Shown here in pieces: positions 36,001 to 39,000 of a stretch of 64,000 nt of DNA. The DNA lies in assembly GCF_057098645.1 (NCBI RefSeq), contig NZ_CM169472.1. One strand, given 5' to 3'. The position numbers were made by a program. Position 1 is the stretch's first letter. The number at the start of each line of letters is the position of its first letter.

Positions 36001-39000
36001 CCCGACCAGGTCTGCCCTTCTTCATTGCGGTAGTAAACACCTTTCGATGAGTTCCGGCGAGCGAGTCCATCATCAGGCACATTAGTATATCCCAGCTCTT
36101 GTAAGGTTATATTGTAATAAGTAATCTGCTTCTGAATCGACTCAATTACACTTTGAACTTCCTGCTCTCGCAGTCGCTTTGCTTCCTGCTGTAGAACTGC
36201 AATTTGCTCTATAAGCTGAATGTATGGACTTGTTGTATGTGAATTATTTTCCATATTCATAATAAATAATCTCCGCATGCTTTAATATTTTAAGCTATTA
36301 GCGACCTTATCAGGAAGGACCAACAATTAATCAAATGATATAAATTATGTGAGATAACGTTTATCTATCAAATTAGGACACATCTATTTCATCAAACAAC
36401 CACCTTAAAATGTTATTATTCTCTTTTTTCTAATGTGTAAAATACATTATCATTAAATGTCAACAAAAAAATCATATATTTTTAAAATCCGTTTAAAATC
36501 AATGATATAGAAGAAAATCATCTCGTTAACAAACGACTTTAATAATTGCATTTCCATTTAGTTAAGCGTTTCTCTTTATAAGATAGATCTCATTGCATAA
36601 ACAAATAAAACAGAATAAAAACCAAGCTGAACCGTTTCACTATACTCTACTTAATTCGAGTTACAGGAAGGCGGCAAGCGAGTGAATCCCCAGGAGCTTA
36701 CATAAGTAAGTGATTGGGGTAAGCGAACGCAGTCGCAGCACATGCAACTTGAAGTATGACGAGTATATATATCTATTAGCTGTTTCCCGGACATAAGCTA
36801 CAGCCAGCACTAACCTGGAACGGGTGCATTATAAAAAGGAACAAGGGACAAATAGCTGAACAGTAACCGCGTTAGTCTCTTCCCGCATAACCGTACCATT
36901 CGTATTAAGAAGTATTGCCCATATCCATTCGGCGAAAGAGGATCTGCCATACATCAAGTCCGTTTTACTTGGCATCAGATCATCGCCGTCATTAACTCTG
37001 TTAAAGTCGGACAAACGATTAGCAAGATCTGTGATTCAAAAGTGCTTAGCGCTAAGGTGGGACTGGTTACAGATTCATTAACCCTGTTCTTTGTCGCACC
37101 TATCGATCGGTGTAATGCCACAACAGGTTTATGTTAATCAGAACAATGCGCCCCTCTATAAAGAGAATTCTTTGATAAGGCAACTTGAAAAGGGAAAGCT
37201 AACTGATATCAATGTACCACTTTAGTAATCATCACATTATATACAGGCCAAAATAAGTTTCCTGAAAGCCAGTATCTCTAAATCAATCATTAATGATATA
37301 TTTTATCGTCACAATAAAAATTATCTAAATTCTATTACTTATGTAAATAAGCACAACCTTTTCATAGACACAAAAACTATGGCTGACGCATCACTTGCAA
37401 TCAATTATCCATCATTAGATTAATATTTTCACTTATTTTTCAGAAGGTAAAAATAACTTTACTATGCGTTTAAAACACCCGCTATAAATATCTTGTATAT
37501 TATTGACACTATATGATGCTATATGATACTTGTTGCCAAATTGTTCATTACAAACCAGATAGGAGAATCTCTCATGATAAATGGACTTAATAATGACTCC
37601 GCATCTTTAGTTTTAGATGCTGCAATGAAAGTTAATTCTGGGTTTAAAAAAAGCTGGGATGAGATGTCATGCGCTGAAAAGTTATTTAAAGTACTTAGTT
37701 TTGGTTTATGGAATCCAACGTACAGTCGTAGTGAAAGACAATCATTTCAAGAGTTGTTAACCGTTTTAGAGCCTGTATATCCACTTCCCAATGAATTAGG
37801 CAGAGTATCTGCTCGTTTTTCAGATGGTTCATCCTTAAGAATTTCCGTCACTAACAGCGAACTTGTTGAAGCCGAGATTCGCACAGCAAATAATGAAAAG
37901 ATTACTGTGCTCCTGGAGTCAAACGAACAAAATAGGTTATTACAATCTTTACCCATCGATCGCCACATGCCATACATTCAGGTTCATCGTGCCTTATCTG
38001 AGATGGACCTGACTGATACTACCTCAATGCGCAATCTACTTGGTTTTACGTCAAAACTATCAACAACCTTGATTCCTCATAATGCTCAAACAGATCCGCT
38101 TTCCGGGCCTACACCATTCAGCTCTATCTTTATGGATACATGTCGAGGACTCGGCAATGCAAAGCTTTCACTCAATGGTGTTGATATACCTGCAAATGCA
38201 CAAAAATTGCTTCGCGATGCACTAGGACTTAAAGACACACATTCATCACCAACCCGGAATGTTATAGATCATGGTATTTCTCGCCATGATGCAGAGCAAA
38301 TAGCAAGAGAAAGCAGCGGCAGTGATAAACAGAAAGCTGAAGTTGTGGAATTTTTATGCCATCCAGAAGCAGCAACGGCCATATGCTCGGCTTTCTATCA
38401 ATCTTTCAATGTGCCAGCCTTAACGTTGACACATGAAAGGATCTCTAAAGCCAGTGAATACAATGCGGAAAGATCGTTAGATACACCTAACGCTTGCATT
38501 AACATCAGTATCTCTCAATCATCAGATGGAAACATTTATGTTACCAGCCATACTGGGGTTCTGATAATGGCGCCAGAAGACCGCCCCAACGAGATGGGCA
38601 TGTTGACGAACAGGACTTCTTATGAAGTGCCGCAAGGTGTGAAATGTATAATCGATGAAATGGTAAGTGCGCTACAACCAAGGTATGCCGCATCTGAAAC
38701 GTACTTACAAAACACTTAAAATAAAACTTTATTAATCAAAACTAATAATAGAAACCATAGCCATAATTATTAACAATTTATTCCGAAGTTAATCACAATT
38801 AAACAAAGATATTTATTCTGCAAACAATTTACAGCAAATAGAGAAAATGAAAAGAAAACCATTAATTGCATTTTTCATTGCGATATTTATTGCGCTAACC
38901 ATATCAATATTATTTCCATTTAATTGTACTTACAAAAAATCACCTCAAGAACACTCACTTTCATTTATAAAACAATTACCAAATACGGTGAACTTATCAT

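Follow-up and report, generated by a model that had tools for sequence, protein, structure and literature searches.

An intact 127-bp ERIC element between ler and espG marks one of two deep spacer haplotypes of the LEE

ERIC elements form a textbook repeat family that is common in enterobacteria, and the presence of one between ler and espG raises the question of what exactly it is, where it ends and whether it does anything to either gene. The initial annotation of the DNA analyzed here (64,000 nucleotides of contig NZ_CM169472.1, assembly GCF_057098645.1; hereafter the window) proposed that an ERIC with both standard primer sites lies in this spacer and that, if transcribed, it could alter the stability of ler or espG mRNA. 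The two flanking genes are as it had named them (Table 1); the spacer, which it put at ~1.25 kb, measures about 1.31 kb. RefSeq records agree on the genes and have nothing annotated between ler and espG. In the original EPEC and EHEC LEE sequence papers, the stretch from espG (then rorf2) to ler was reportedly shown with an ERIC, which the LEE of rabbit EPEC is said to lack. As a kind of element it is already known and has little weight as a discovery.

Three independent lines of evidence agree on a 127-bp ERIC element in the spacer. An inverted-repeat search identified terminal arms that fix its bounds. When the whole spacer was used as a query against 5426 complete E. coli genomes, 5425 matched at query positions 363–493 (window 36641–36771), the only spacer segment with matches in genomes of E. 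coli that are not LEE-bearing. In an alignment with 121 Enterobacterales copies, column conservation was 0.6–0.99 within 36641–36767 and 0.2–0.35 just beyond. An ERIC at this locus, which is far beyond chance, is thus borne out, with bounds that differ from the 36670–36845 first given, an interval that missed the initial 29 bp and took in 78 bp of unrelated flank (36768–36845). Both primer sites are recognizable, the ERIC1R complement exactly and the ERIC2 site with two mismatches; each pattern occurs once in the 64-kb window and had 0 matches in 100 shuffles. The consensus derived from the data includes both primer sequences. The consensus orientation is that of the plus strand, the same as espG and opposite to ler.

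To place the element within its family, we used a consensus of 121 copies from other Enterobacterales. The ler–espG copy is identical to it at 114 of 127 positions (89.8%) from end to end, so that the match to the consensus, set by the initial annotation as the test of its claim, extends well past the primer-like core. The median copy is 85.8% identical to the consensus, and 63% of copies score below the one described here. Because 36684–36703 served as the search pattern, invariance of this segment among the fetched copies is by construction. The length of exactly 127 bp is modal (90 of 122 aligned copies), and the ends of the element, TATAC...GTATA, are those of the commonest form in the family (38 copies). 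By BLAST with the 127 nt, ERIC was found in 5425 of the 5426 E. coli genomes at a median of 13 places per genome (range 3–20), a dispersed, multicopy distribution that continues at more than 120 loci, a lower bound, in other genera. Among the matches listed, the closest copies are those of Escherichia, 92–96% identical over the full length, with other genera at 82–88%. Small ORFs in and around the element had no Pfam matches, and a search of the 127 bp for a transposase found no ORF with a family match, such as an autonomous insertion sequence would need. The published description of ERIC/IRU comprises 127 bp, inverted repeats, a target duplication and TA termini (PMC2229807; PMC3184786), and it is secure that the intergenic ler–espG element is an ordinary full-length member of this ERIC (IRU) family of 127-bp non-autonomous repeats (MITEs).

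Table 1 Features of the ler–espG region, in window coordinates.
Feature	Position	Strand	Basis or remark
ler	35889-36260	-	H-NS C-terminal domain
Distal LEE1 promoter (P1), -10 region	36423..36445	-	Exact match to sequence in PMC5401889
-35 hexamer TTGACA of LEE1 P1	36459..36464	-	Read from sequence
Predicted Cra (FruR) operator core TGAACCGTTTCA	36628..36639		1 mismatch to TGAAWCGWTTCA; not part of ERIC
Complete ERIC (IRU / RU-1) element	36641..36767	+	127 bp; inverted repeat, shared segment, conservation drop
Left terminal inverted-repeat arm (TATACTCTAC...)	36641..36665		25 nt, 76% complementary to 36743-36767
ERIC1R primer-site complement GTGAATCCCCAGGAGCTTACAT	36682..36703	+	Exact match
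Central hairpin of ERIC (CCCCAGGAGCTTAC / GTAAGTGATTGGGG)	36688..36719	+	Fold and family consensus structure
ERIC2 primer site	36704..36725	+	2 mismatches: C>T at 36714, G>A at 36721
Right terminal inverted-repeat arm (...GACGAGTATA)	36743..36767		Inverted-repeat search and consensus fold
TA-rich target remnant TATAT right of ERIC	36768..36772		ERIC-less haplotype: TATATAG here
IS3-family relic: IS left end and first 28 orfA codons	36881..37032	+	Start codon decayed to ATA
Predicted espG promoter-like site (TTGACA, 16 nt, GATACT)	37503..37530	+	10/12 positions
espG	37574-38719	+	SdiA-regulated-domain gene next

The distribution of the element across LEE islands was examined by joining the two 150-bp flanks, with the ERIC left out, into a single query, which matched 690 LEE-positive complete E. 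coli genomes. The element was present in about 456 of these, including O157:H7, O55:H7, O145 and O111:H8, where the flanks were at least 90% identical to the query; presence was called from a two-piece match, which spanned 426–428 bp in 39 of 39 full-length sampled rows. A further figure, 455 records with a copy at least 99% identical to that in the window, agrees with this count. The remaining third or so (about 234 of 690), including O26 and O103:H2, lacked the element and had flanks 60–80% identical to the query; absence was called from a one-piece match, which covered 323–330 bp in 19 of 20 sampled rows, the twentieth covering 60% of the query. Two deep spacer haplotypes were seen, a further ERIC-less spacer being identical to the O26 type at 1206 of 1207 positions, and the ERIC is a lineage marker of one of the two.

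When the 127 bp were removed, the window aligned colinearly with the ERIC-less haplotype at a TATATA site, the junction reading ...CGTTTCAC-TATAT-CTATTAGCTG in the window and ...CGTTCCGC-TATATAG-CTATTACCTG in the ERIC-less form. A first MAFFT placement of the junction, made before this realignment, was misleading and was discarded. As the left flank is 31% diverged, alignment scores place the left junction only to within about 20 bp. Since the empty haplotype has TATATA at the site, the target was TA-rich, as expected for the ERIC family, and a TA target-site duplication is present whose exact dinucleotide is ambiguous within the TA run. Two distant LEE-like islands, with Ler 62–63% identical, contained no ERIC; they have tir, not espG, upstream of ler and share with the window only the P1 promoter core (about 36429–36487), with no homologous ler–espG spacer. 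Gain of the element, in an Escherichia-like host, is more economical than its loss.

We consider it probable that the element is a passive insertion. An ERIC would have entered a TA-rich site in an untranscribed spacer that separates the promoter of LEE1 (ler) from the divergent one of espG, in a single gain in the Escherichia-like host of the ancestor of the O157/O55/O145/O111-type LEE, and would have been inherited passively thereafter. How well this reading stands against the alternatives depends on conservation, on the regulatory sites nearby and on the position of the element relative to transcripts.

By direct alignment among carriers, the ERIC differs at 0–1 of its 127 bp and each 100-bp flank likewise at 0–1 positions, with the exception of the left flank of strain 13E0767 (4 of 85 positions), which lies beside an IS66 insertion; no excess conservation of the element over its flanks was found by this alignment. 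The identity bands of the search had given the impression that the ERIC was better conserved than its surroundings, which we rejected, as the differences sit in the ler-proximal 277 bp (9–12 among carriers).

For the regulatory sites, we take ler numbering to begin at the proximal transcription start, which we place 32 nt upstream of the ler ATG, at window position 36292. This numbering is self-consistent, '-173', the end of the published distal-promoter fragment, falling at 36465, 1 nt outside the P1 -35 hexamer. In EHEC, Njoroge et al. (PMC3482499) obtained a Cra footprint 'around -350 bp' on the ler promoter with a probe that ran from -450 to -255, placed the action of KdpE between -173 and -42, reported that a ler-lacZ fusion covering -393 to +86 is Cra-dependent, and proposed an interaction of Cra and KdpE by DNA bending or looping. 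On the above numbering the probe covers 36547–36742, and TGAACCGTTTCA is the only good Cra site within that interval; the Cra 14-mer consensus matches 36628–36641 on the minus strand. By its position and its agreement with the consensus, this core would be the footprinted Cra operator of ler. It ends 2 bp before the left end of the ERIC, and in this sense, which the initial annotation had not recognized, the element is indeed near the LEE1 regulatory region: it abuts a predicted operator of ler. The Cra site itself is absent from the ERIC consensus and lies in a flank that is not conserved among ERIC copies.

The alternative that survives best is an effect in cis on the DNA, in which the ERIC would alter how the DNA from Cra (about -340) to KdpE bends or loops, or interrupt the spreading of H-NS or Ler between the LEE1 and espG promoters, so that ler regulation would differ by LEE type. 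Besides the adjacency of the predicted operator and the looping model of PMC3482499, a step in composition is in its favor, from 19–29% GC in the adjoining promoter DNA to 46–50% GC in the palindromic ERIC, as is the ERIC-less haplotype, which has TAAGACGTTCCG at the Cra core with 4 mismatches. We nevertheless regard such an effect as unlikely. The -393 end of the fusion corresponds to window 36685 and keeps 45 bp of the ERIC; since this construct remains Cra-dependent (PMC3482499), the dependence on Cra seen in that assay does not require the complete element. The Cra site is in the flank, outside the ERIC consensus, and the element is no better conserved than what surrounds it. Any effect on ler would be at most incidental and at the level of DNA, for example through the spacing or composition beyond the Cra operator.

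In the sample examined, the ERIC is perfectly linked to the adjacent good Cra site. This could hint at a joint regulatory role; linkage within a single haplotype explains it equally well, because there are only two haplotypes. A stronger form of the idea sets islands that have both the ERIC and the Cra operator, those of the O157/O55/O145/O111 type, apart as a regulatory class in which the element would shape the upstream DNA for Cra–KdpE looping and tie ler to gluconeogenic signals; islands of the O26/O103 type, with neither the element nor a good Cra site, would be wired differently. The evidence on such a class shows only that the two features are linked, not that the ERIC has an effect, and we give the idea a very low probability.

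Transcription of the ERIC, as part of a long espG leader, of a far-upstream ler transcript or of an independent small or antisense RNA, would allow its hairpin to alter RNA stability, which was the mechanism put forward in the initial annotation. The precedent comes from Yersinia, where ERIC transcripts affect mRNA stability in an orientation-dependent manner; according to summaries of De Gregorio 2005 (PMC2229807; PMC10969869), RNase E cleaves an exposed, right-hand ERIC repeat, and co-transcription with a gene is needed. The position of the element in the window argues against this. Counted from the -10 region of the distal LEE1 promoter, it is about 196–345 bp further upstream; as both known LEE1 promoters are thus nearer to ler than the element is, it is outside the ler mRNA, whose LEE1 leader is roughly 170 nt (PMC4456613). 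Toward espG there is a single strong promoter-like site, about 735 bp beyond the ERIC; it precedes the espG start codon by 44 nt and is conserved in the O26-type spacer. The number of promoter-like matches in the spacer, 8, is what chance predicts (7.0 ± 2.5), and a search of the ler–espG spacer for terminator-like sites found none. The two reported LEE sRNAs were considered as possible ERIC transcripts and rejected, as Arl is antisense to the ler 3' end and sRNA350 is the cesF 3' UTR. The element thus appears to lie outside the known ler and espG transcripts, in an untranscribed spacer between divergent promoters, and we infer that it plays no part at the level of RNA here.

The fold of the element is consistent with either view. 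The folding energy is -46.3 kcal/mol (z = -5.8) for the plus strand and -37.3 kcal/mol (z = -4.1) for the minus strand; the hairpin is stable on both. An RNAalifold consensus from 94 distinct copies has 31 pairs, every one of which is a standard pair in the ler–espG ERIC, including the outer stem that pairs 36642–36647 with 36761–36766. The outer stems vary in a compensatory manner across the family; the pair 36646/36762 is C-G in 66 copies and U-A in 14, with the ler–espG copy among the 14. Such a fully intact hairpin fits a functional RNA and fits equally a young or slowly evolving copy. At Rfam gathering thresholds nothing was found at the site, and Rfam holds no ERIC family. Below threshold, RF02818 (V_AS5, a Vibrio antisense RNA) aligned over its full covariance model, positions 1–129, exactly on the ERIC, with a score of 36.6 bits (E = 1.2e-6) against a gathering score of 96. 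This match indicates that a related element is expressed in Vibrio and is, with the stable hairpin and the Yersinia transcripts, what favors transcription here; it falls well short of the gathering score. A weak isrH match (E = 7.2) mirrors only the shared ERIC-like termini and was set aside. Given the position of the element, we hold a transcribed, RNA-active ERIC to be decidedly improbable.

The remainder of the spacer records other mobile DNA. A separate, decayed IS3-family relic begins 113 bp right of the ERIC; over 36881–37028 it shares 74% identity with the left end of IS3-family elements that occur on 362 plasmids, and 36949–37032 still codes for 15 of the 28 residues with which OrfA begins. 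Since the ERIC-less haplotype has the relic as well, the relic is older than the split between haplotypes. Together, ERIC and relic form a block of 40–50% GC between promoter regions of 19–30% GC. Two strains, 1074-2 (O111:H8) and 13E0767, have a different IS3-family pseudogene in place of the sequence from ~37098 onward, espG included. The spacer is a landing pad that repeatedly accepted mobile DNA. That the ERIC and the IS relic mark a hotspot of recombination or rearrangement, a junction where LEE lineages exchange or lose DNA, would explain why the haplotypes are 26–31% divergent in the 100 bp on either side of the ERIC and 14–18% in the rest of the spacer, and IS3-family insertion with loss of espG does begin ~330 bp right of the element in the two strains just named, but it is extremely improbable, as divergence rises on both sides and then falls back, which means that the ERIC is not a mosaic boundary, as its flanks are still alignable and colinear between haplotypes, and as the IS-associated breakpoints lie away from it, at about 37098.

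Passive inheritance of a once-inserted ERIC is thus the reading that we retain, and the locus has practical uses. The corrected coordinates and the split into presence and absence provide a simple marker for the two LEE1-upstream haplotypes. Common ler promoter constructs and probes, with ends at -393 and -450, cut through the ERIC, which matters when results are compared across pathotypes. The operator at which Cra gave a footprint in O157:H7 is missing from ERIC-less lineages as well, so that findings on Cra control of ler may not transfer to O26 and O103 strains.

Compared with known systems, the ler–espG copy has no structural difference from the ERIC/IRU/RU-1 elements (Sharples & Lloyd 1990; Hulton et al. 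1991; Wilson & Sharp 2006). It has in common with them the length of 127 bp, the primer-site core, the terminal inverted repeats and the TA-rich termini and target, as well as the long imperfect hairpin, the intergenic location, the multiple copies and a presence that varies among strains. With the Yersinia ERICs that act in mRNA decay it shares the repeat family and the hairpin; those are co-transcribed with flanking genes, whereas the position of the ler–espG copy argues against co-transcription with ler or espG, a judgment made on position only. V_AS5 has the same outer stems and GGGGT/CCCC core and differs in the central loop by an 11-nt deletion; the relation is a distant one and not membership. 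The Correia elements of Neisseria, MITEs found in promoter regions, are likewise small, palindromic and non-autonomous, with a TA target duplication and a position upstream of a regulated gene, but they can bear outward-facing promoters and IHF sites, whereas the ler–espG ERIC has no promoter-like site inside it or at its ends, and the inverted repeats are the only DNA motif described for ERIC (PMC2229807). Within its own family, it is set apart by its surroundings: most described ERIC copies are in transcribed regions near the 3' ends of genes, whereas this one lies between two divergent promoters within a horizontally acquired, AT-rich pathogenicity island.

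At 1.3 kb the ler-espG spacer is unusually long, and much of this length is accounted for by two insertions, the 127-bp ERIC repeat (36641-36767) and a decayed IS3-family relic to its right. The relic consists of the left end of the IS and codons 1-28 of orfA, of which 15 of the 28 residues remain identical and the start ATG has decayed to ATA; nothing of orfB remains. As the relic is common to the ERIC-carrying and ERIC-less spacer haplotypes, it must predate the presence/absence polymorphism of ERIC.

When the window was compared with L002, a sequence of the ERIC-less haplotype, the 100-bp flanks of the ERIC site (36541-36640 and 36768-36867) were 26-31% divergent, and the remaining spacer was 14-18% divergent, about half the figure for the flanks. 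Within the right-hand flank lies the short tandem repeat AAGGAAC(A), which is present in two units in the window and O26, three in MFDS1001074, and about five to six in FDAARGOS_1059. The coordinates of these and the other features identified are listed below.

Features in and around the ler-espG spacer and at the edges of the window (window coordinates)
Feature	Position	Strand	Remarks
C4 antisense RNA	8-95	+	Rfam, gathering threshold; left edge of window
Second Cra-like 12-mer, TGAATCGACTCA	36133-36144		One mismatch; within ler coding sequence
NagC operator, exact copy	36423-36445	-	Overlaps distal LEE1 -10 box
Predicted Cra (FruR) operator core, TGAACCGTTTCA	36628-36639		Ends 2 bp short of ERIC; predicted from consensus and position
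Short tandem repeat AAGGAAC(A)	~36836-36849		Copy number differs among strains (window, L130, L131)
Decayed IS3-family relic	36881-37032	+	113 bp right of ERIC
istR sRNA	59641-59770	-	Rfam, gathering threshold; near right end of window

Several other sequences depart from this arrangement. In O111:H8 1074-2 (L124, at 1520-2228) and in 13E0767 (L128), the spacer gives way at window position ~37098 to a pseudogene for an IS3-family transposase, and espG is therefore missing at this position in both. The ERIC-bearing fragment of 13E0767 is an isolated remnant flanked by IS66-family and IS3-family elements, with no ler annotated within the stretch examined. Two Logan assemblies (ERR4503945 and ERR14042392) contain LEE-like islands in which Ler is just 62-63% identical and tir-cesT-eae, not espG, lies divergently upstream of ler; their conservation with the window is limited to the surroundings of the LEE1 P1 promoter, a stretch of ~55-60 nt. 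A further sequence (OU349844.1, GCA_910664835.1) carries a ler-escE-cesAB fragment in which the usual sequence upstream of ler extends for only 180 bp. Genes for phage terminase and tail fibres flank the fragment on one side and a gene with an RHS domain on the other; it may represent a LEE1 that is partial or has been rearranged, or else an artefact of assembly.

The Rfam scan of the window at the gathering threshold returned two hits, one toward each end. C4 antisense RNA is typical of P1/P7/P4-type phage immunity regions, and together with the istR hit it suggests that the island is bordered by a prophage-like element at one end and by core chromosome at the opposite end. The ERIC termini (TATAC...CAACTTGAAGTATGA.G.GTATA) aligned weakly and not significantly (E = 7.2) with positions 161-216 of the Salmonella sRNA model isrH (RF01391), a hint that Salmonella isrH may hold a truncated ERIC-like element.

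Around ler, the predicted Cra core beside ERIC agrees in position with the published Cra footprint at the EHEC ler promoter. Its equivalent in the O26/O103-type spacer has four mismatches, so the control that Cra exerts on ler may be restricted to certain lineages; the Cra-like 12-mer inside ler is kept in all LEE haplotypes examined. The NagC operator at the distal LEE1 promoter is reported to be conserved in O157:H7 strains, while EPEC E2348/69 and C. rodentium are reported to have a degenerate form of it (PMC5401889).
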